32,000 nucleotides of DNA from Candidatus Kuenenia stuttgartensis (GCF_900232105.1 NZ_LT934425.1:840001-872000); one strand, 5' to 3'; shown: positions 2,965 to 32,000, counted from the first letter of the stretch. The notes: generated by a model not told the origin, from the sequence alone. Numbers and translations: made by a program.

Positions 2965-3261
2965 ATGCGTAAAAAAGAAGAATTAAAATTATTAGCAAAT
3001 AAATGTATTGCAATACTCACTAACAAATATCAGGTTAAAAAAATCTTCCTTATCGGATCGCTTGTACATGGTATTGTCCATGAAAGGTCTGATATTGATT
3101 TGGTTGTTGAAGGGTTGCCTTCAGAGTTTTATATAAAAGCCCTGTCAGAATTGAGCGATATCATGCCTCCCGGTGTCGAGATTAATCTCATTCCATTTGA
3201 AGATGCGTTTGAAAGTTTAAAGGAAAAAACAATAAAGGAAGGGGAACTTGTTTACGGATAG
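2965..3261 (+). CDS. mntA: Minimal nucleotidyltransferase (MNT) antitoxin of a HEPN/MNT module
   Basis: 98 aa. GAGGAG RBS at 2952-2957, 7 nt before ATG 2965. GSX10DXD motif GSLVHGIVHERSDID (nt 3055-3099). Overlaps the downstream HEPN gene by 14 nt. Confidence 0.8.
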   Translation: MRKKEELKLLANKCIAILTNKYQVKKIFLIGSLVHGIVHERSDIDLVVEGLPSEFYIKALSELSDIMPPGVEINLIPFEDAFESLKEKTIKEGELVYG

Positions 3262-3709
3262 GGAACGACTGAAGAAGGACATTGAAATAGAACTCGAAAA
3301 TCTGCAAAGGCTCGTACAAGAGATGGAAGAACTAATCCGTGAGTTACCTGAAAATCCCGGTTCTGTTGAAACACGGGCTGCGGGAAGCATTCTTCATGAT
3401 TTCTATTGTGGTATCGAAAAGATTTTTGAAAGGATCGCTATTACTGTTGATAACAACTTGCCAGGGGGAGAAGACTGGCATAAACAATTGCAGAAACAAA
3501 TGGCAACCCCTTATAAGGGAGCAAGAAGAGAGGTCATAACGGAGGAGGAGTTAATGTTAGAATTAAAAGAATACTTAAGTTTCCGTCACCTTTTCAGACA
3601 TATCTATGGTTTTAATTTAAAGTGGGAACAATTTTCTCGACTTTGCTATTCTTTGGGGTCTTTATACAAAAAATTAAAGATTGCATTAATCGACTTCTTG
3701 AAAAACTAA
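3248..3709 (+). CDS. hepT: HEPN-domain ribonuclease toxin (HepT-like)
   Basis: 153 aa with a TTG start at 3248 that overlaps the MNT gene. R-x4-H HEPN motif in SFRHLFRHIY (Arg113..His118, nt 3584-3601). Gene order and overlap are typical of MntA-HepT pairs. Confidence 0.7.
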   Translation: MFTDRERLKKDIEIELENLQRLVQEMEELIRELPENPGSVETRAAGSILHDFYCGIEKIFERIAITVDNNLPGGEDWHKQLQKQMATPYKGARREVITEEELMLELKEYLSFRHLFRHIYGFNLKWEQFSRLCYSLGSLYKKLKIALIDFLKN

Positions 3710-23692: not shown

Positions 23693-23765
23693 GCAGGGGC
23701 GAAGCATTTGCCCCTTTGGGTATGAATTCATTTATGACAATTTACAGCAAATGCTTCGCCCCTGC
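23693..23765. repeat. 73-bp palindromic repeat unit (inner unit of the MITE-like family)
   Basis: Perfect 19-bp inverted repeat gcaggggcgaagcatttgc (23693-23711) / gcaaatgcttcgcccctgc (23747-23765). The central 10-bp palindrome atgaattcat lies at 22-31 of that loop (23722-23731). Its reverse complement aligns at roughly 85% (by eye) with 26434-26507. Confidence 0.7.
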
Positions 23766-23798
23766 ACTATCCGGCAACACGTTTTAGCACAGAAGCAA

Positions 23799-24752
23799 AT
23801 GGATGAAAAGATCAAATTGGGGATTAGCGCATGCATGCTTGGTGAAAATGTTCGGCATGACGGAGGACACAAGCTTGACCATTATTTGAAATATACACTT
23901 GGAAAATTTATTCAGTGGGTTCCTGTGTGCCCCGAAGTGGAATGCGGCCTTCCCACTCCAAGAGAATCAATGCAGTTGGTTGGAGATCCTGAAAACCCTC
24001 GCATTCTTACCATAAAAACGCATAAAGACTACACCGTTCAGATGAAAAAATGGATCTGCAGTAAGGTGGTAGCGCTTAAACATGAAAACGTGAACGGTTT
24101 TGTGTTTAAGAGTAAATCTCCAAGCTGTGGTATGCAGGGAATAAAGGTATATCCATCTTCATCTGGCATTTCTGTCGGGAAGGGCATCGGCTTGTTTGCC
24201 AGGGGATTTATGGAAAAATTTACCTACGTTCCGACGGAAGACGATTGTCATCTTCAGGTTCCTGAAAGAAGGGAAAATTTTATAGAAAACGTATTTGTGT
24301 TTTACCGGTGGAAGAAATTCCTGAAAGAAGACGGCTCTATAAAGGGCCTTACAACTTTTCATGCAAACCATAAATTATTAATTATGTCCCATAGTACAGA
24401 AACAGTCAAAGACCTCGGTAAAATGGCGGCTCAGCCGGGCGGAACCGGAAAGAAAGATTTGTTTGATCAATATTGCAAGACATTAATGACGGCATTAAAA
24501 TTAAAAGCAACCGTAAAGAAAAATATCAACGTTTTGCAGCATATTTTGGGGTATTTTAAAAGAGAGTTGTCTTCCTGGGAGAAAAAAGAATTATTGGGGA
24601 TTATCGAACAGTATCGCGAAAAACAGAGTCCCCTGATTGTACCTGTAACTCTTCTACGGCATTATGCTCATAAATATGATAAAGAATACCTGAAATCGCA
24701 ATATTATCTTAATCCACATCCGATGGAATTTAGACTGCGGAATCAGTTTTGA
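23799..24752 (+). CDS. DUF523 (TudS-like [4Fe-4S] desulfidase fold) fused to DUF1722 (YbgA-like) protein
   Basis: ATG 23799 is preferred, because the ORF-track start at 23751 lies inside the palindromic repeat. N-terminal KLGISACMLGENVRHDGGH, then VCPEVECGLPTPRE and KSPSCG Cys ligand motifs. The C-terminal half resembles YbgA (FHANHKLLIMSHS). Confidence 0.75.
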   Translation: MDEKIKLGISACMLGENVRHDGGHKLDHYLKYTLGKFIQWVPVCPEVECGLPTPRESMQLVGDPENPRILTIKTHKDYTVQMKKWICSKVVALKHENVNGFVFKSKSPSCGMQGIKVYPSSSGISVGKGIGLFARGFMEKFTYVPTEDDCHLQVPERRENFIENVFVFYRWKKFLKEDGSIKGLTTFHANHKLLIMSHSTETVKDLGKMAAQPGGTGKKDLFDQYCKTLMTALKLKATVKKNINVLQHILGYFKRELSSWEKKELLGIIEQYREKQSPLIVPVTLLRHYAHKYDKEYLKSQYYLNPHPMEFRLRNQF

Positions 24753-24897: not shown

Positions 24898-25389
24898 TCA
24901 GGTATCGTTTGTTTTCCCCTTTGAAAGAGGTTTGAGTCTTCTCAGGCTGTGATTGCAATAAGGGCATTTTCTAATAAAAAGATACATAAAAAAGAGCAGA
25001 ATTGCCCATAACCCTGCTGTAAAGAAAAAGAGTATAACATCGCCGAAATCCAATTTATGAATTCTCTCCGGCACAACACGCTTTTCACAATAGCGGCAAA
25101 AAGCCGTTTCTTGTTTTTTTGCCGATGGTCTGAAGTCAATAACTCTTTTTACATTTTTTAAGGAAATTGTACCGGACATTTTCCTCCCCCACCCAATACC
25201 CTTTATAATGTGATTATCGCATTCGTACTTTTTAAAGACATTATGTATTTGCTTGCATTTTCCTGCCAGAAATAATTCTATGCGAAAACCTTTCGGGGGC
25301 TTCGACCGGTAATATTTTTTAACCAAAAAATGTTCCGGGTCATTGAGTATTGCTATGGCAACCGTCTTAATTTTCTCTAAATCTATCAT
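24898..25389 (-). CDS. Hypothetical protein with C-terminal LITAF-like split zinc ribbon and an embedded hydrophobic helix
   Basis: 163 aa, 35 nt downstream of murB on the same strand. The C-terminus CRYCEKRVVP...(VILFFFTAGLWAILLFFMYLFI)..CPYCNHSL consists of two CxxC knuckles flanking a hydrophobic segment. The N-terminal ~100 aa are not recognised. Confidence 0.45.
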   Translation of the reverse strand: MIDLEKIKTVAIAILNDPEHFLVKKYYRSKPPKGFRIELFLAGKCKQIHNVFKKYECDNHIIKGIGWGRKMSGTISLKNVKRVIDFRPSAKKQETAFCRYCEKRVVPERIHKLDFGDVILFFFTAGLWAILLFFMYLFIRKCPYCNHSLRRLKPLSKGKTNDT

Positions 25390-25424: not shown

Positions 25425-26327
25425 TTATGGTTCTCCAACAACCATAATTTCTGTATTCAGCGAATAGCCTGATTTTTCTTTTACCGTTTTCTGTGTGTAT
25501 TGAATTAGCGCCAAAACATCGTTTGCCTTAGCATTTCCCAAATTAACGATAAAATTTGCGTGTTTTCCGGAAATTTCTGCGTCGCCAATGCGCATTCCCT
25601 TCAGCCCCGCCTGTTCTATCAATCTTCCTGCCCCAACATCCTCTATTTTCTTAAAAACTGAGCCGCAACTGGGAAATTCCGGCAATTGAGGCTGTTTTGT
25701 TTTGCGCCACTCCCGATTCGCTTCCATAACTGATTTTATTTCTGATTTCGGTTTTTGTGAAAGCTGGAAGGTTACATCAAGCACAATATCTTTCTGTTTA
25801 TGCAAGATACTCGTATCATATCCAAACCGGAAGTACTCACCATCAACCGTTGTACTATTCCCATCTTCCGCTAAAATACGGCTCTTGCTGACTATTCCGG
25901 AAATAAATATGGTGTGTTTTCTGTCAGGAGATAAAAAATGCAGATTTTGCCATATTGCGCCGCCTACAGTACTCGGAATATCCACAAAATGCTCAAACCC
26001 TGATAGTCCTCGTTGATAGCATAGATTAAGAAGGTCGCCAATAATCGCGCCACTTTCCGCAACCAATTTATTCTTTTCAAGGAAGGTCGTTTTGTTTGCA
26101 AGATTTCTGATCACAAGACCGCGAAATCCCTTATCGGTAAATAAGATATTTGCGCCGCAGCCAAGCAAAAAATAAGGGGTTTTTCTGCGCTTTGCCTCTA
26201 ATACCGCTTGTGTTAATTCTTCGGTGGTATGTACTTCAACAAACCAATCAGCGGGACCGCCTATTTTATAAGTAGTAAAAGGGGCGAGAGGTATGTTTTT
26301 TTTCAGGTTTGGTATGCTGAGTACCAT
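25425..26327 (-). CDS. murB: UDP-N-acetylenolpyruvoylglucosamine reductase (type II MurB)
   Basis: 300 aa. PLAPFTTYKIGGPADWFVEV, GCGANILFTDKGFRGLVI and SCGSVFKK motifs. Length and motif order are typical of short-form MurB. Confidence 0.9.
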   Translation of the reverse strand: MVLSIPNLKKNIPLAPFTTYKIGGPADWFVEVHTTEELTQAVLEAKRRKTPYFLLGCGANILFTDKGFRGLVIRNLANKTTFLEKNKLVAESGAIIGDLLNLCYQRGLSGFEHFVDIPSTVGGAIWQNLHFLSPDRKHTIFISGIVSKSRILAEDGNSTTVDGEYFRFGYDTSILHKQKDIVLDVTFQLSQKPKSEIKSVMEANREWRKTKQPQLPEFPSCGSVFKKIEDVGAGRLIEQAGLKGMRIGDAEISGKHANFIVNLGNAKANDVLALIQYTQKTVKEKSGYSLNTEIMVVGEP

Positions 26328-26379
26328 TTATTGTTTTTATTTTACTCTTTCTATAAAAGAGTGTAATTTGTCAGAGTGT

Positions 26380-26532
26380 GTAACACTTTAGTTTTTTGAA
26401 AAATTCTAATAATAACGATGTTTACTGCACAGTGTAGGGGCTAAGCATTTGCTGTAAATTGTCATAAATACGTTCATGCTCAAATGGGCAAAACGCTTCA
26501 CCCATACTTTTTCAAAAAAACTAGATCGTTAC
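26380..26532. mobile_element. MITE-like non-autonomous element with ~25-bp imperfect terminal inverted repeats enclosing a nested palindrome
   Basis: Left end gtaacactttagttttttgaaaaat (26380-26404). The right end (to 26532) reverse-complements to gtaacgatctagtttttttgaaaaagt, about 21/26 matches. The interior 26434-26507 is a degenerate palindrome homologous to 23693-23765. No ORF inside. Sits between the nqrF-like stop and the murB start. Confidence 0.65.
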
Positions 26533-26582
26533 TCAGGTTTTAATCTTTGAGAAGAATGAATCATGCGGCGGGTAGGCAGGTG

Positions 26583-28220
26583 TTATTTTTTATATGAATC
26601 CAGCAAAGCAACGAGGTCCTTATCTTTTTGCCCTGAGGTTTCGAGGATATTTCTCACCTTCCCGATAAAACTGTAGCCTTCTTCAATTTTATCCCTTAAA
26701 AGTAGTTGTACAACCAGTGTGAAGGTAAGTTTTTCGATGATTTTCCCGGCATCTGGTATGTTTGCGGCAAGCATTTTTTCTTTTAACTCTAATTTTTGGT
26801 AAAGAATATCTACCGAAGGAGTAAGCGTGCCGGTAAAATCATCAAACAGTGCGTTTTCTTTTTGGAGATTCAGCACGTTGGCGGCAGCATCAATTACGGT
26901 AACGGTCATAGGCGCCGGCCCGCAGAGATAAAATGCTATATCAGGGTCAGGGGTAAGGTATTTATTGAGCAGCGGCCCTATAAATCCCTTCTCCCCCTGC
27001 CATTGTTGCTCCTGCTCATCAATGTATCCTTGTTTTTTAGCTAGTTGTTTACCCTCATCGGCAAGACTCAAAAAGCACTTCTTATCTATTTCATTTAACA
27101 TGGCAGGGTCGTCATCGCGAAACGCACCGGAAAGTACAGGAATGAATTTAAAATTGGGGTTTTGCATTTGCCACTTTAACCATTTGGGCAAATACATTAT
27201 TGGAATATCCTGGAGTCGCCTTTCTCCCAGGAAAAATATCGCCTTCTCCTGCCTTCCCTCTATGAACCATTGTTCCAATAACGCCAATATTGGTGCAAGT
27301 CCTGCCCCTCCAGCCACAAATACCGCAGTGTGTGGTTCTGTTTTCAGAGAAAAATGGCCGTAAGGTCCTGTAAAATGTATTTTTTCGCCGAGAAAGAAAT
27401 TCCACAAACTCCGTTCCTGGGTATAGTGATGTACACAACTAGGCCCGATGCATGGGGCGCCACCACTTTCCACCGCCTTTGAAGGATCTACGGGGGCCAA
27501 TCGAACAATAAGCTTTAAAAGGTCTGGTTCGTATGAAGCGAGCGAATAGCCTCTATACATGGCATTCCCCGGTTTATAAGGAATAAATTCTTTCCCCAGA
27601 TTTTCACACGCCTTCTTTATATGAGTTTCGTATTTATTATAATGTTCCTCCACAAAATCTTCCGGAAGCATTAATTGAATATATTGACCGGGTTTATACG
27701 CAATAGGCTTTGAAGGTTTAAGCCATATTTCCATTTTATCGCTGGTGATCAGAATCTTTTTGACTGCCCTGGCTGTGTACTTTTTTACATTGAGGGTATC
27801 TTTTGACAGGTACAAACTAACATCCTTCTCCACCCGCACCTGACATGCCAGACGTTCATAACCATCTCCGATACCATCTTCCAGAAATTTTTTTGCATTT
27901 TCCCGGGAGCGCATATCAAAATGCGGCGTTTCAACGGCCGTATACAAACCGACATCGGTATAAAGTTTCACTTTACACTGACCGCATGTTGCCATCCCTC
28001 CACACGCCGCCGGAATATTAAAGCCATTGTTTTGTAATAATGATAAGAGCCTTTCTCCGCCTTCAATATTAAGCTCTTTCTTAAACTCATCATCACTTAT
28101 AACAGTTAGCTTTTGTTTTGCCCCACGCCCGAAAAACTGGAAGATGATCTCGCACACTAAACTTAGTGCCAATATGAGTACGGCGAGAATACCTGCGCCT
28201 AAAAATAAAGGGGTAAGCAT
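26583..28220 (-). CDS. nqrF: NqrF-like subunit: TM anchor, plant-type 2Fe-2S ferredoxin domain and FNR-like FAD/NAD(P)H domain, with an insertion and an 81-aa C-terminal extension
   Basis: 545 aa. N-terminal TM helix. Cys73/79/82/126 in ACGGMATCGQC...LACQV. FAD motif RGYSLAS. NAD motif VFVAGGAGLAPI. The canonical end YLCGPAPM...FDDFTG is followed by 81 more residues (nt 26586-26828). Confidence 0.85.
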   Translation of the reverse strand: MLTPLFLGAGILAVLILALSLVCEIIFQFFGRGAKQKLTVISDDEFKKELNIEGGERLLSLLQNNGFNIPAACGGMATCGQCKVKLYTDVGLYTAVETPHFDMRSRENAKKFLEDGIGDGYERLACQVRVEKDVSLYLSKDTLNVKKYTARAVKKILITSDKMEIWLKPSKPIAYKPGQYIQLMLPEDFVEEHYNKYETHIKKACENLGKEFIPYKPGNAMYRGYSLASYEPDLLKLIVRLAPVDPSKAVESGGAPCIGPSCVHHYTQERSLWNFFLGEKIHFTGPYGHFSLKTEPHTAVFVAGGAGLAPILALLEQWFIEGRQEKAIFFLGERRLQDIPIMYLPKWLKWQMQNPNFKFIPVLSGAFRDDDPAMLNEIDKKCFLSLADEGKQLAKKQGYIDEQEQQWQGEKGFIGPLLNKYLTPDPDIAFYLCGPAPMTVTVIDAAANVLNLQKENALFDDFTGTLTPSVDILYQKLELKEKMLAANIPDAGKIIEKLTFTLVVQLLLRDKIEEGYSFIGKVRNILETSGQKDKDLVALLDSYKK

Positions 28221-28232
28221 GTTTACTCCAAC

Positions 28233-29651
28233 CTAAAAAATACGAATCATTCCAATGCCGGTAAATATAGCGGCCATTATGCCAAGTAAAAGGATTGCTA
28301 TTGTATCTTCATCCCATGCATTTGTTGGCACAAAGAGACGCTGACGTCTCAACAATGCAAGCCAAACAGTAACCATTAGCCAGTGAAGTCCATACCCAAA
28401 CGCAGTAATGGTTGAAACCATAAAAGATGTGCCTGTAGGAATGGTAAATGTTGCACTGGCAAGTACAATACAATTTACGGTAATTAGTTCAAGAAACTGC
28501 CCCATTTGTTCATATGCCGTTCGTGCAAATTTTCTAAGCATCACGCTTAATGTTTGCACAAATACGGCAATGGTTACAATAAATACTGTCAGGTAGAAGA
28601 TTTTCTCCAGCCGTATTGACATGGATGAATATTTTGCTAAAACATCGCTTCCCATTATCAACACCTTATTATATACCACCCAGTTTAAAGCAGTAGAAAG
28701 CGTCATAACGATAATTACGGCAATCCCCATTTTCCATGCCGCATCTATTTGCCGTGATTTATTGAGCAACGGGCATATGCCTAAAAGTTTACTGAGTACT
28801 ATACCATCAAAGAAAAGGGCATTTAATAATATTGGCAAAAAAATAAGAAACTGAGTATGCAATGTCGGGCTGGTACGAATGTGTACAATGATACTTATAA
28901 ACAAACAGATGCCCAGCCCGATGGTAATTAACGATTTTCGGGAAATTTCAAACTTTGAACGCGGGGCAGGAACAGGGCCTTCTTCCGGTGTCTCAACAGC
29001 GGCGCATTCACATGAAGCCGCTTCCTGATAGACAATCCTTGCCTTGAGCAAGAAAGGACGCATCATGAGGCGAAATCCCGCCAATGCGAAAAATCCTCCC
29101 ACGGGAGTTATCATTAACACAACGCGAGGAAACGTTTCCGGAATTACGGAAAAGCCCATAATCGTGCCAAAACCCAGCGGTTCCCGCAGAAAGGCAAGCA
29201 ATATCAGCGCAAAAGCATATCCCATACACGCCTTTAAAATCTTTTTCTGCGCTTCCCAGAATGGCACCGTTAACCCTTCAGAAATTACGGCAAGCACTAT
29301 ACAATTAGTGGTAATAAGGTCGATATATGCCCTGATACTGGCAGCCACCTCCGGCACAAACGCCTGGGCAAAGAATGCAAAAATGGTCACAAACACCGAA
29401 ACAATAATCATTAAAAGCGAAATCTTGTGGTGTGATCCCGCTATGGTTATTAATCTTCGAAATGGATAAATTAAGGAAAAACTCCCCATTGCAACAAACA
29501 ACACACCAAGTCCCATCGTCAGAGAATTTTCGAGTTTATTCGTTACCGCCAAAGCAGAACAAAACCCTAAACCGGCGCCTGCGGTTAAAATAAGATTGTC
29601 TCTCAAGAAAAATTTAGAAGTTTTTCGTATATGTCGCTTTAGTCCTACCAT
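28233..29651 (-). CDS. Fused NqrD/RnfE-like and NqrE/RnfA-like membrane subunit
   Basis: ATG 29651 is preferred (GGAG RBS 7 nt upstream); the ORF track gives TTG 29675. Residue numbers below follow the ORF-track translation. The N-half motif GLGFCSALAVTNKLENSLTMGLGV (Cys39) with TTNCIVLAV (Cys125) resembles NqrD/RnfE. The C-half motif KLLGICPLLNKSRQIDAAWKMGIAV (Cys301) with TVNCIVLAS (Cys402) resembles NqrE/RnfA. The ~70-aa linker contains one extra hydrophobic helix. Confidence 0.8.
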   Translation of the reverse strand: MVGLKRHIRKTSKFFLRDNLILTAGAGLGFCSALAVTNKLENSLTMGLGVLFVAMGSFSLIYPFRRLITIAGSHHKISLLMIIVSVFVTIFAFFAQAFVPEVAASIRAYIDLITTNCIVLAVISEGLTVPFWEAQKKILKACMGYAFALILLAFLREPLGFGTIMGFSVIPETFPRVVLMITPVGGFFALAGFRLMMRPFLLKARIVYQEAASCECAAVETPEEGPVPAPRSKFEISRKSLITIGLGICLFISIIVHIRTSPTLHTQFLIFLPILLNALFFDGIVLSKLLGICPLLNKSRQIDAAWKMGIAVIIVMTLSTALNWVVYNKVLIMGSDVLAKYSSMSIRLEKIFYLTVFIVTIAVFVQTLSVMLRKFARTAYEQMGQFLELITVNCIVLASATFTIPTGTSFMVSTITAFGYGLHWLMVTVWLALLRRQRLFVPTNAWDEDTIAILLLGIMAAIFTGIGMIRIF

Positions 29652-30328
29652 TTCTGTTCTCCGGATTTTCTCCAAAATTCCTGTACTGCGTCATTGATAA
29701 ACTCCTCAATACCCCTGCTTGTATTGGTAGCACCGGTTATAGCATCAAATTCATTATCACCCGTAGCTTTCCGCTCCTTAACCATCTTGATTTGCGGTTT
29801 TAATTTCATTCCAACAAATTGCTTTTTAAATATATCTTCCGTCATTCTTCCACCAAGTCCAGGAGTCTCGCTGTGATCCAATACTTCTATCCCTTTCAGC
29901 GTTTCCATGTCAGGTTTCAGGCAAATAAACAAAGACATGGCGCTTGATTTATTATATCCATATCCTATCCTTGACCTGATAAACCCTATCCCTTGCAACT
30001 CTCCGTCTTTAATGAATTTATATACCTTCCCCTCTTCTTCGTTTTTTGCCCCGACAGCTTCGGTTTCATCAACGGTTATCGACGTATCAAATACTTCTCT
30101 TATATTATCTTTATCGTACCCTTTGATAGTAAAACCCATGATGGTTTTTTCAGTTGTACGGTATGGAATTCCAAAGATATCAAGAACAGCACGTTTTTCC
30201 TTTATTTCATGATATGCGGCAATTTTCGGTGCTGTATAAAAATATACCAAAAACAATCCGGTACACGGAATAAATGCAATGAAAAGGATCGAGAAAATAC
30301 GGAGTATAAACGTCTTAAATTCTTCCAT
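29645..30328 (-). CDS. nqrC: NqrC/RnfG-like FMN-binding subunit
   Basis: 227 aa. N-terminal TM anchor. DHSETPGLGG motif. Flavinylation motif DAITGAT (Thr201). Confidence 0.8.
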   Translation of the reverse strand: MEEFKTFILRIFSILFIAFIPCTGLFLVYFYTAPKIAAYHEIKEKRAVLDIFGIPYRTTEKTIMGFTIKGYDKDNIREVFDTSITVDETEAVGAKNEEEGKVYKFIKDGELQGIGFIRSRIGYGYNKSSAMSLFICLKPDMETLKGIEVLDHSETPGLGGRMTEDIFKKQFVGMKLKPQIKMVKERKATGDNEFDAITGATNTSRGIEEFINDAVQEFWRKSGEQKW

Positions 30329-30403
30329 AAATTATGTTTCGCTAAAACTTTGTGATAGTTAAATTAGTGGCTGTAAACTATTTTGCCGTTATCTTTTGTT
30401 ATT

Positions 30404-31507
30404 TCAGGTGCGGTATCTTATTTTTACCATCAACGATTGAATGGGTATTGCAAGCAAATTCATAAGCAATATAGCATACATTGCTCCTTCAGACAGTGTG
30501 GTATAATTCCTTAGCAACACGGTAATAAATCCACACCCTATGCCATATATCCATTTCGCCTTCTGATTATAGGTTGCTGTAATAGGATCTGTAATCATAT
30601 AAAAAGCACCCAATACTAACCCTCCGCTCAGGAGCTGAAAAATAGGCGGGGCAACATTTTCCTTTGACAGGAGTGAAAACATACCTGAAAAGATAAACAC
30701 GCTGCCAAAATAGGACACCGGCAACCGCCAGTTCGCAACCTTCATTTTTACAAGCCATATACCGGACAGTATAAGTGCTAATCGGCAGGTTTCTCCCAAA
30801 GAGCCATTCGCAGTACCTATGAGCAGGGAAAAATAAGAAGTGATGGTGCCGTCTGTCTTAAACGCGGTAAGCGGGGTAGCGTGGGTAATGGTATCAAGCC
30901 CATACCGCAAGGTATGAAGATCAGGTATACCGACAAAAGGCATCTGGTAGCCTGTCGCCAAAAGTGACGGGAAACATATTGTCAGGAACAATCGGCTAAA
31001 TAGCGCAGGATTCACCAAATTGTACCCAACGCCTCCCAATATATTTCTGAAGATAATGGCCATTGCTGCGCCAAAGCCTATCAGCCAGAGAGGCGCTTGT
31101 GGTGGCAGAATGGCGGGAACGAGCAGGCACGAAACAAACCCTCCCTCACTAATGTGATCTTCCCTGGCAATTATTGCCCATATCACATCAACAACAAACA
31201 CCCCAACAACAAGTGAAACAATCAATTTCGAAATCACACACTGTAACCCGTAAAAATACATCGCAGGAAACACCCATCCCATTGTCAGCGCAATAAGCAC
31301 AGCACCCATAAACTTTTTCGTGTCCGTGTTGTTTCGGATAAAGGGCTGTGTCTGCGCTGTATGTTTGGAGCTGCGCAACAAACCGTCAAACGCTTCAAAA
31401 ACTGCCCCAAAAAGGAAATTGACTGTTTCGTGGGTATGGATAAAGGTCTCTATCCTGTCAAGATTCTTATTAAGTGGCGATTCGAGTTTATTGAGTAATT
31501 TCTTCAT
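30404..31507 (-). CDS. nqrB: NqrB/RnfD-like polytopic membrane subunit
   Basis: 367 aa. The N-terminal cytoplasmic stretch resembles NqrB (ETFIHTHETV...PFIRNNTDTKK). Also ILPPQAPLWLIGFGAAMAIIF..GGVGYNLVNPAL. Flavinylation-type motif DTITHAT at nt 30875-30895. Confidence 0.85.
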   Translation of the reverse strand: MKKLLNKLESPLNKNLDRIETFIHTHETVNFLFGAVFEAFDGLLRSSKHTAQTQPFIRNNTDTKKFMGAVLIALTMGWVFPAMYFYGLQCVISKLIVSLVVGVFVVDVIWAIIAREDHISEGGFVSCLLVPAILPPQAPLWLIGFGAAMAIIFRNILGGVGYNLVNPALFSRLFLTICFPSLLATGYQMPFVGIPDLHTLRYGLDTITHATPLTAFKTDGTITSYFSLLIGTANGSLGETCRLALILSGIWLVKMKVANWRLPVSYFGSVFIFSGMFSLLSKENVAPPIFQLLSGGLVLGAFYMITDPITATYNQKAKWIYGIGCGFITVLLRNYTTLSEGAMYAILLMNLLAIPIQSLMVKIRYRT

Positions 31508-32000
31508 GCTTTTTGTACATCCGGCGATTTACATTCCTTGATGATCCGCAACAATTCAATTTTCGAAGGGCATGCAAAACTGCACAGACCGCATTCAATA
31601 CATTTTTCTATATCATAACTACGCACCTTCTGTTTTTCTCCTCTGTTGTAGGCCTGGTGGTACAAAGCAGGTTCTAAATTAACAGGGCAAATATCATCAC
31701 AGAAGTTACAATACACGCAGGCTCGCAATTCCCCAAGCAAATTAGTGGTAAAATGCAGCCTATCCGTGTTAATCATAGGAAACATCTCTTTCTTATCCTG
31801 CGCCGCCAGAACAACAATGTCATTTACCGTCCAGCCAATTTTTTGAGCAAAATCGTTAACTTCCATTCCTCTTAACGGACCGTTTATAAACACACGATAA
31901 GGGGCGGTCTCCTTTACCCTGTTTTTTAGTATTTTTTCAAGGGTTGTTCCCAACTGCACCTTGATAAACTCATTTTCCTTAAGACCTGTGCCCGAAAGGG
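31504..32000 (-). CDS. RnfC-like / NqrA-position subunit, C-terminal part (5' end outside the window)
   Basis: The reading frame stays open upstream of the ORF-track GTG (31959) to the window edge. Two canonical CxxCxxCxxxCP motifs, CVYCNFCDDICP and CIECGLCSFACP (nt 31570-31719), as in RnfC. ATGA overlap with the downstream NqrB-like gene. Confidence 0.7.
   Translation of the reverse strand, partial: LSGTGLKENEFIKVQLGTTLEKILKNRVKETAPYRVFINGPLRGMEVNDFAQKIGWTVNDIVVLAAQDKKEMFPMINTDRLHFTTNLLGELRACVYCNFCDDICPVNLEPALYHQAYNRGEKQKVRSYDIEKCIECGLCSFACPSKIELLRIIKECKSPDVQKA

Follow-up and report, generated by a model that had tools for sequence, protein, structure and literature searches.

An anammox operon pairing an iron–sulfur RnfC relative with an NqrF homologue looks like an intermediate between the Rnf and Na+-NQR ion pumps

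Introduction

Textbooks describe two members of an unusual family of redox-driven ion pumps, Rnf and Na+-NQR, and the origin of NQR has so far been reconstructed from these end states only. According to an evolutionary model from 2014, RnfB was lost first, the cofactors of RnfC then decayed, and NqrF was recruited last; the setting was Chlorobi and Bacteroidetes, and fused or chimeric sequences were excluded from the study (PMC4014512). Here we describe an operon from Candidatus Kuenenia stuttgartensis that has features of both pumps. It lies at one end of a 32,000-nucleotide (nt) stretch of the genome (NZ_LT934425.1:840001-872000; 'the window' below), for which a model, reading the sequence alone, had proposed a hybrid of an RnfC-type iron–sulfur (Fe–S) first subunit and an NqrF-type last subunit (the original prediction).

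Our comparison systems for Rnf were the complexes of Clostridium tetanomorphum, Acetobacterium woodii and Azotobacter vinelandii (PDB 7ZC6, 9ERI and 8AHX) and Rsx of Escherichia coli. In the structure from C. tetanomorphum, RnfC is built of three alpha/beta domains together with an N-terminal arm and a ferredoxin domain (PMC9588780). Operons of the type nqrBCDEF without nqrA were noted earlier for Clostridium ultunense and Pseudothermotoga lettingae (PMC5924567). In anammox genome papers the present operon appears under the name 'Na-NQR', its D and E being given as fused (PMC6828613), and a study of Ca. Anammoxibacter metagenome-assembled genomes (MAGs) called a related operon ambiguous, either NQR or RNF (PMC9325076). 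Hybrids are not mentioned in a 2025 review of RNF and NQR (PMC12174285), and in the full-text literature we found no description of an Fe–S-bearing NqrA or of an RnfC and NqrF hybrid; de Almeida 2016 and Kartal 2013, which may mention one, lie outside that coverage. The truncated, Fe–S-bearing subunit A, the additions to subunit F and the large family of operons that pair an Fe–S A with NqrF thus seem to be new.

Results and Discussion

Comparison with Na+-NQR and Rnf

The operon shares with Na+-NQR the gene order A-B-C-D-E-F and the lack of RnfB. Its F is an NqrF homologue with a membrane helix and 2Fe-2S, FAD and NAD domains, and it also has the FAD-domain insert and the C-terminal FDDF(T/G)G. 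The threonines for covalent FMN in B and C, the four cysteines in D/E and the N-terminal extension of B are likewise common to both. The differences begin with A, which carries two [4Fe-4S] motifs and is nearer to RnfC, whereas NqrA is cofactor-free; it is also ~100 amino acids (aa) shorter and has lost the barrel domain. D and E are fused via an extra helix, B has no periplasmic insert after its first transmembrane helix, and F adds an insert of ~39 aa and a four-helix C-terminal extension of ~80 aa. The core is only ~30% identical to that of Na+-NQR, and all subunits score far under the NCBIfam cut-offs for Nqr.

The likeness to Rnf lies in A, which matches RnfC residues 145-428 including the ferredoxin domain with its two [4Fe-4S] clusters, and in B, C, D and E, the homologues of RnfD, G, E and A, for which the hidden Markov model (HMM) scores are slightly above those for Nqr. 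The operon differs from Rnf in having NqrF in the place of RnfB and an NqrB-type extension on B. Moreover, its A has neither the barrel domain nor the GGAGFP/ECEP site for FMN and NAD and hence cannot serve as an NAD+ reductase module.

Five genes on the minus strand

Gene calls with Pfam and NCBIfam matches bore out the five subunits of the original prediction, their strand and their order: A-B-C-fused D/E-F, tightly packed on the minus strand. The window contains the 3' part of A (31504..32000 and beyond; the last 164 codons by translation), B (30404..31507; 367 aa; Pfam NQR2_RnfD_RnfE, PF03116, E = 4.9e-77), C (29645..30328; 227 aa; FMN_bind, 6.8e-16), the fused D/E (28233..29675) and F (26583..28220; 545 aa; Fer2 and NAD_binding_1, with nqrF as best NCBIfam match). 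D/E is an open reading frame (ORF) of 480 aa with two Rnf-Nqr domains; public gene calls use a start at 29651, and its product then has 472 aa. The A and B genes share 4 nt, there is also an overlap between C and D/E, and the gap between D/E and F is 12 nt. Because all neighbours among the five genes overlap or lie at most 75 nt apart, the arrangement fits a single operon.

At the protein level the window is an exact match to CP049055.1 (Ca. Kuenenia stuttgartiensis), with an identical B protein, and we used this genome to complete the A gene. Neither in the 32-kb window nor within 10 kb on either side in the source genome did we find a further ORF with a ferredoxin-type CxxCxxCxxxC motif, so RnfB is not encoded nearby, just as had been predicted. 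An rnfB gene upstream together with an F in a transcription unit of its own, which would have spoken for a different view of the locus, was not what we saw: no rnfB lies within 10 kb upstream, and F follows D/E after 12 nt.

Subunit A is a shortened relative of RnfC

The A gene runs ~550 nt past the end of the window and encodes 348 aa when complete (locus L001:8958-10004). Both of the CxxCxxCxxxCP motifs that the original prediction had placed at 31570-31719 are present on the minus strand, the first, CVYCNFCDDICP, at 31684..31719 and the second, CIECGLCSFACP, at 31567..31602, and Pfam Fer4 dicluster families exceed their cut-offs. With NCBIfam, full-length A scored 129 bits for rnfC (cut-off 246; model positions 148-429 of 435) versus 73 and 52 bits for NqrA (cut-offs 321-450), all of these being under the curated cut-offs. 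A PDB sequence search gave RnfC with E = 1e-20 versus NqrA with 2e-4, and the NqrA match was confined to the C-terminal 76 residues. Foldseek on the AlphaFold model returned RnfC chains as best matches (1e-17 versus 3e-11 for NqrA), and A aligned with residues 145-428 of RnfC in 7zc6_C. The complete protein, with its eight cysteines in place, is therefore nearer to RnfC and not a typical NqrA with misread motifs. The model is good at residues 12-250, and its predicted local distance difference test score (pLDDT) is < 50 over most of the ferredoxin domain, so that the cluster geometry is based on motifs and homology rather than on the model.

What A has lost concerns the flavin site. The N-terminal arm of RnfC is kept ('FKGGVNL'), the N-terminal barrel domain is deleted, and the alignment opens only at RnfC residue ~145; accordingly, the RnfC_N domain had no match in full-length A. 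The FMN/NAD loop is deleted as well: in the alignments, the canonical 'GLGGAGFPT...NAAECEPY' is replaced by a direct run into 'LCPTEPWALPNW'. When the full gene was checked for the NADH/FMN-binding and SLBB domains of RnfC, Complex1_51K reached 23 bits, under its cut-off of 31 and over profile positions 26-149 only, and NQRA_SLBB was also below threshold. The predicted RnfC-type first subunit thus holds for a Rossmann/SLBB remnant and the ferredoxin domain and fails for the barrel domain and the FMN/NAD loop. Given these losses A is not a functional NAD-reducing RnfC; what its sequence appears to retain is a remnant of the fold and two clusters, not the NAD+-reducing site.

Short forms of A (334-384 aa) occupy the top 120 database matches, and the taxon-named matches among them are all from anammox bacteria (Kuenenia, Brocadia, Jettenia, Scalindua and Wunengus). 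The source databases name these homologues inconsistently as '4Fe-4S dicluster protein', 'RnfC' or 'NqrA'; this matters for annotation, and one anammox MAG study remained undecided between NQR and RNF (PMC9325076). We rejected a wrong start codon or a frameshift as explanations of the short form, given an upstream stop, a spacer of ~200 nt without domain remnant and a length kept in >100 clusters. One A gene, from a MAG of Ca. Scalindua rubra (L022, 3288-4364), has lost the second Fe–S motif through a frame change near its 3' end, most likely an assembly frameshift and not a real variant.

Across 31 anammox homologues with 46-80% identity, all eight cluster cysteines are fully or almost fully conserved. 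A profile of the anammox A alignment, searched exhaustively, yielded 4697 relatives. Among the best 150 cluster representatives there were 134 near-full-length proteins, 123 of which had both Fe–S motifs and no canonical FMN loop; the loop was found in 10 only. At 50% identity, A proteins with the Fe–S cysteines and without the loop form at least 120 sequence clusters. Further short forms without the barrel domain are P0366, P0318, P0407 and P0296. NqrA sequences do not have the motifs, the equivalent positions in the alignment having decayed.

This pattern bears on the possibility that the clusters are off-pathway, structural or assembly relics inherited from RnfC, in a pump that otherwise takes NAD(P)H and passes electrons from the riboflavin of B to quinone as in Vibrio cholerae NQR. 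Canonical NqrA, which has the same fold, is cofactor-free and has no assigned catalytic role (PMC12174285; PMC9588780), and the FMN/NAD site that the clusters serve in RnfC is gone from A. We nevertheless regard relic clusters as unlikely, though worth keeping in mind: the cysteines have been held across the anammox genera and across the loop-less clusters and decayed in NqrA, which suggests a functional requirement. Strict retention after loss of the flavin site, unlike the decay in NqrA, argues that the predicted clusters are functional, be it as an exit path, a side port or in a structural role.

Subunit F is an NqrF homologue with anammox-specific additions

The alignment of F with V. cholerae NqrF spans the full length and all domains (E = 1.9e-30). 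NCBIfam nqrF was its best family with 158.6 bits, under the cut-off of 295, and the AlphaFold model (pLDDT 88.4) had NqrF chains of Na+-NQR as best structural matches (Foldseek E = 1e-28). The protein has an N-terminal membrane helix (residues 2-31), a 2Fe-2S domain with Cys73, Cys79 and Cys82 (27975..28004) and Cys126, the FAD motif RGYS (27543..27554), the NAD motif GGAGLAP (27291..27311) and a CGP motif (26916..26924), all on the minus strand. The 2Fe-2S cysteines and the RxYS, GGxGxAP and CGP motifs are conserved in the alignments. Sequence and structure thus agree on a membrane anchor and 2Fe-2S, FAD and NAD domains in the subunit predicted to be NqrF-like.

Two additions are specific to anammox bacteria. 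An insertion of ~39 aa in the NAD domain (residues ~366-404; 27009..27125, minus strand), for which two short helices are predicted, was not seen in the alignments with V. cholerae NqrF or with the NqrF-like proteins of the other operon classes described below (II-IV). The C-terminal extension of ~80 aa (residues 466-544; 26589..26825, minus strand) is supported by alignments and by the model, in which helices 466-485, 491-509, 512-528 and 532-544 have pLDDT > 90. From Kuenenia to Scalindua, the short A and an F of 526-555 aa are kept at 46-58% identity with every ligand retained, which indicates purifying selection.

The membrane core

B is a membrane subunit of the NqrB/RnfD type, with 205.3 bits for NCBIfam rnfD (cut-off 207.05) and 201 bits for NqrB; in a PDB search, RnfD scored 119-140 bits and NqrB 108-111 bits. 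Its FMN attachment motif DTITHAT (30875..30895, minus strand) is invariant in the anammox operons (class I of the survey below). In the class alignment, B has the N-terminal cytoplasmic extension of NqrB and is without the periplasmic insert of canonical NqrB. C is of the NqrC/RnfG type with one N-terminal membrane helix (rnfG 71 bits, NqrC 70 bits); its flavinylation motif DAITGAT, recognized in the original prediction, lies at 29726..29746 on the minus strand and has the form (D/H/A)AITGA(T/S) in class I.

The N-terminal half of D/E is NqrD/RnfE-like and the C-terminal half NqrE/RnfA-like. Joining two inverted six-helix halves should require an extra helix, and hydropathy places an additional, strongly hydrophobic segment in the linker (residues 248-266). 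Cys39, Cys125, Cys301 and Cys402 are the predicted ligands of the intramembrane 2Fe-2S cluster; these four are invariant in 19 class I sequences, and the remaining cysteines vary. Fusion of D and E and the order A-B-C-DE-F were found in every anammox locus.

Towards the family models, B, C, D and E are about equidistant from Rnf and Nqr, with Rnf marginally higher and all scores under the curated cut-offs (score/cut-off for nqrB 185-201/350-414, nqrC 66-70/144-255, nqrD 106-116/235-245 and nqrE 121/248; for rnfG 71/102, rnfA 136/229 and rnfE 116/213). The slight preference of A, B, C and D/E for the Rnf models would suit a conventional Rnf complex of the ferredoxin:NAD+ type with its rnfB at another locus and, as an unrelated neighbour, the gene for an NqrF-like reductase. 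We consider this very improbable. A has no FMN/NAD site, F with its membrane anchor and full-length NqrF match lies 12 nt from D/E, the gene order is constant in all anammox loci, and a separate canonical rnf cluster has been reported in anammox genomes (PMC6828613; PMC9325076).

The low scores of all subunits and the truncation of A could also be taken as signs of a decaying, non-functional duplicate of an Rnf/Nqr operon, a possibility to which we give next to no weight. All ORFs are intact, the cofactor ligands are kept across Brocadiaceae and Scalinduaceae, the model of F is of high confidence, and the index of a public assembly collection lists the exact B protein in 268 blocks. Furthermore, complexome profiling of K. 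stuttgartiensis detected both Na-NQR and RNF complexes, according to a paper that cites this work (PMC6828613).

A wider family of operons with Fe–S A and NqrF

An NqrF alignment served to scan one genome per species, and the best 80 loci were classed by phmmer. Class I comprises the anammox operons, with 17 loci in which the A region was covered; A is short and Fe–S-bearing, D/E is fused and F has ~544 aa. Class II occurs in Omnitrophota, Planctomycetota, Phycisphaerae, Spirochaetota and Ca. Anammoxibacter (13 non-anammox loci). Its A proteins (449-690 aa) have both Fe–S motifs and keep the barrel domain, D and E are separate, and F has 357-364 aa. Class III is mostly from Bacillota (16 loci, plus the canonical-looking L065 and L081), with no A detected, separate D and E and an F of ~365 aa. 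Class IV is canonical NQR from Bacteroidales, Hydrogenedentota and others (6 loci), with a cysteine-free A, separate D and E and an F of 409-420 aa. Operons with a two-motif A without canonical FMN loop, an NqrF-like last gene and no RnfB within the operon form a group to which the Kuenenia operon belongs on all three counts.

The class II operons are the nearest relatives of the anammox core. They have in common with it the two-motif A with a degenerate FMN loop (e.g. 'LGKSGIPT', 'NREGIPT' and 'AHTGALPD'), the extension of B, the NqrF-like last gene and the absence of RnfB. They differ in the barrel domain of A, in their unfused D and E and in F, which ends with YDKF at ~360 aa and is without the FAD insert, the NAD insert and the C-terminal extension. 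In subclass IIb, A is NqrA-like at the FMN loop and yet keeps the Fe–S cysteines; the one member scored, L049, matched an NqrA model better than rnfC. Polyprenyl synthase or UbiA genes adjoin 4 of the 14 class II operons, which is a weak link to quinone.

Ca. Anammoxibacter, the third anammox family, has a class II and not a class I operon in two MAGs (OFTM134 and OFTM214; L035 and L047), with an A of 510-545 aa including the barrel domain, separate D and E and an F of 360 aa. Consequently, either the class I specialisations postdate the split of the families or the operons are of separate origin. The class I architecture was also found in one rare, divergent lineage, seen in L007 (Logan SRR22387820, 4146 bp), P0234 and P0241, whose F is only 36% identical to that of anammox bacteria; a search for more of it gave a single further short contig. 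This lineage has a fused D/E of 475-485 aa and an F of 542 aa with the same C-terminal extension, the A gene lying off the contig; P0366, P0318 and P0398, which are short Fe–S A proteins of 359-368 aa, may be the A of this lineage.

Class III, to which the operons of C. ultunense and P. lettingae belong, shares the NqrF-like last gene and the B-C-D-E core with the Kuenenia operon and differs by the lack of A, by a B without N-terminal extension and by a conserved ORF after F. This ORF of ~150-175 aa was seen in at least 10 of the loci inspected (L040, L054, L060, L062, L070, L071, L075, L078, L084 from Sedimentibacter hydroxybenzoicus DSM 7310, and L089) and, by clustering, in 7 of the 16 loci. 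The ORF has the motif (R/I)WT(D/A)L(S/N)IHMIxEHGF(F/Y)(E/Q)GxGSx(Y/F)Rx(E/D)P and may be an extra subunit standing in for A.

Proposed place between Rnf and NQR

A neighbour-joining (NJ) tree was built from concatenated B, D and E (688 columns) and rooted with three canonical Rnf complexes. Class IV and class IIb were each monophyletic with 100% bootstrap support. Class IV adjoined class IIb with 46%, and class I grouped with class IIa with 81%. The mean identity of the class I core was 37.5% to IIa, 35% to IIb, 32% to III, 32% to Rnf and 30% to IV. The cytoplasmic extension of B, ~45 residues at the N-terminus, is common to classes I, II and IV and is not present in canonical RnfD and class III, and the periplasmic insert after the first helix of B occurs in class IV only. 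In F, a FAD-domain insert of ~27 aa and the C-terminal FDDF(T/G)G are shared by class I and canonical NqrF, and classes II and III are without both; the F tree separates {I+IV} from {II+III} with 62% support.

With its NqrF subunit and a shortened RnfC relative that carries two Fe–S motifs, the operon resembles a form halfway between Rnf and NQR that has survived. The mosaic or intermediate form put forward in the original prediction gains support from the many lineages in which an Fe–S A is paired with an NqrF-like subunit and from the position of canonical NQR beside class IIb (46% bootstrap). Several points weigh against this placement. The F tree (I with IV, 62%) conflicts with the core tree (I with IIa, 81%), which could be due to exchange of F, convergent insertions or long-branch effects. 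The anammox core is fast-evolving, with 30-37% identity to each of the other classes, the deep nodes are weakly supported, and the trees, being NJ only with few Rnf references, are indicative.

Operons with NqrF and an Fe–S A are candidate intermediates that make the order of events in the 2014 model directly testable. If the placement is true, NqrF would have been recruited before NqrA lost its cofactors, and in anaerobes, which differs from that model in both order and setting.

Proposed function

We favour, with about even confidence, a pump of a pre-NQR type that works reversibly as an ion-translocating NAD(P)H:(mena)quinone oxidoreductase and in which the Fe–S clusters of A are redox-active; the same confidence covers, jointly, an operon that belongs to the NQR lineage and predates the loss of cofactors from NqrA. 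Judged by conserved ligands, F retains the sites for FAD/NAD and 2Fe-2S, D/E the 2Fe-2S centre, B and C their FMN sites and A two [4Fe-4S] sites, and the FAD/NAD domain of F is the predicted site where NAD(P)H is oxidised or NAD(P)+ reduced. The original prediction held that neither the entry nor the exit partner can be read from the two known enzymes. The entry can be, as NAD(P)H at NqrF; for the partner on the side of A the statement stands.

Electrons would pass from F via D/E and C to B, a path modelled on known Rnf and NQR structures (PMC12174285), and would drive the export of Na+ or H+. From the flavins of B they would go on to an acceptor with a potential above that of NAD(P)H, most likely menaquinone, and the two clusters of A would still be redox-active, either on this exit branch or next to it. 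The anammox enzyme could also work backwards, drawing on the ion gradient to reduce NAD(P)+ with quinol. Kartal et al. reportedly proposed in 2013 such a reverse direction, from quinol to NAD(P)+, for the anammox 'Na-NQR'. The complex is one candidate for NAD(P)H supply by reverse electron transport, and its cofactor content bears on models of anammox bioenergetics.

If forward flow through the conserved core exports ions, the partner on the side of A should be more positive than NAD(P)H, which excludes ferredoxin as acceptor. Ferredoxin in this position was also rejected because, in either direction, two downhill or two uphill processes would be coupled via the conserved core.

Another candidate is a third type of Rnf/Nqr machine. 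It would take up NAD(P)H at F and release electrons via the clusters of A; their acceptor would be neither NAD+ nor quinone but a soluble or peripheral one, such as a rubredoxin-like or other protein with a moderate redox potential. Such a machine, too, might be reversible. In Rnf, the clusters of RnfC take electrons from the riboflavin of RnfD (PMC12174285), and those of A are conserved though its FMN/NAD site is lost. One might speculate that the deletion of the barrel and the four-helix extension of F form a new docking surface. To set against this, ferredoxin would be excluded on thermodynamic grounds, class II operons are modestly associated with isoprenoid-quinone genes, and no conserved partner gene was found beside the anammox operons, where only within-genus synteny with housekeeping genes was seen (murB, acetyltransferase, radical-SAM/TatD, ffh-rpsP-trmD). 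We hold such a machine to be improbable, though not negligible.

The menaquinone-reducing pump that we favour has difficulties of its own. Quinone is a presumed acceptor, and the Gly-Gly of V. cholerae NqrB, a site that affects quinone and inhibitor binding, is Asp-Val in B (alignment of the PDB match). Every subunit scores under the curated NCBIfam cut-offs, for Nqr and Rnf alike. Canonical NQR works without a cofactor in NqrA, so an NQR-like exit leaves eight strictly kept cysteines unexplained. Ion specificity and the preference for NADH or NADPH cannot be read from the sequence.

The operon also poses the question of what Fe–S clusters do in a subunit without flavin or NAD site. A tentative and rather doubtful answer on a larger scale is a third functional branch of the family, in which the anammox complex and >100 related clusters would couple NAD(P)H, via NqrF and the core, to the [4Fe-4S] clusters of a flavin-less A, with a partner or quinone site new to both textbook enzymes. 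These operons would then be living intermediates from anaerobic lineages in which NqrF was recruited before the cofactors of NqrA were lost.

Surroundings of the operon

Upstream of the operon lie an acetyltransferase gene and a radical-SAM/TatD gene, and murB is the next gene downstream of F after a gap of 255 nt. A promoter and terminator scan of 26200-32000 gave counts at or under shuffle expectation and is uninformative as to the ends of the operon, and RNA folding of the spacer between F and murB gave no structure signal (z = -1.2).

Beyond murB, the window contains a 163-aa ORF without Pfam family on record (24898-25389, minus strand), in which CxxC pairs and a hydrophobic C-terminal segment can be seen by eye, and a 2-thiouracil-desulfurase/DUF1722 gene (23751-24752, plus strand). 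Neither appears to be tied to the operon; both sit between murB and a large cluster resembling type II fatty acid synthesis at 200-21000 on the plus strand. This cluster encodes two B12-binding radical S-adenosylmethionine (SAM) enzymes, a SPASM radical-SAM enzyme, three ketosynthases, two SAM methyltransferases, a FabG-like reductase, a FabA/Z dehydratase, an AMP-binding enzyme, an MMPL transporter and a phytoene-desaturase-like amine oxidase, and presumably corresponds in kind to the cluster previously proposed for ladderane-lipid biosynthesis in Kuenenia, which it resembles. Within it, at 3248-3709 on the plus strand, lies a gene for a HepT-like protein, the partner of a toxin-type nucleotidyltransferase (Pfam HepT-like_2, 1.4e-29).

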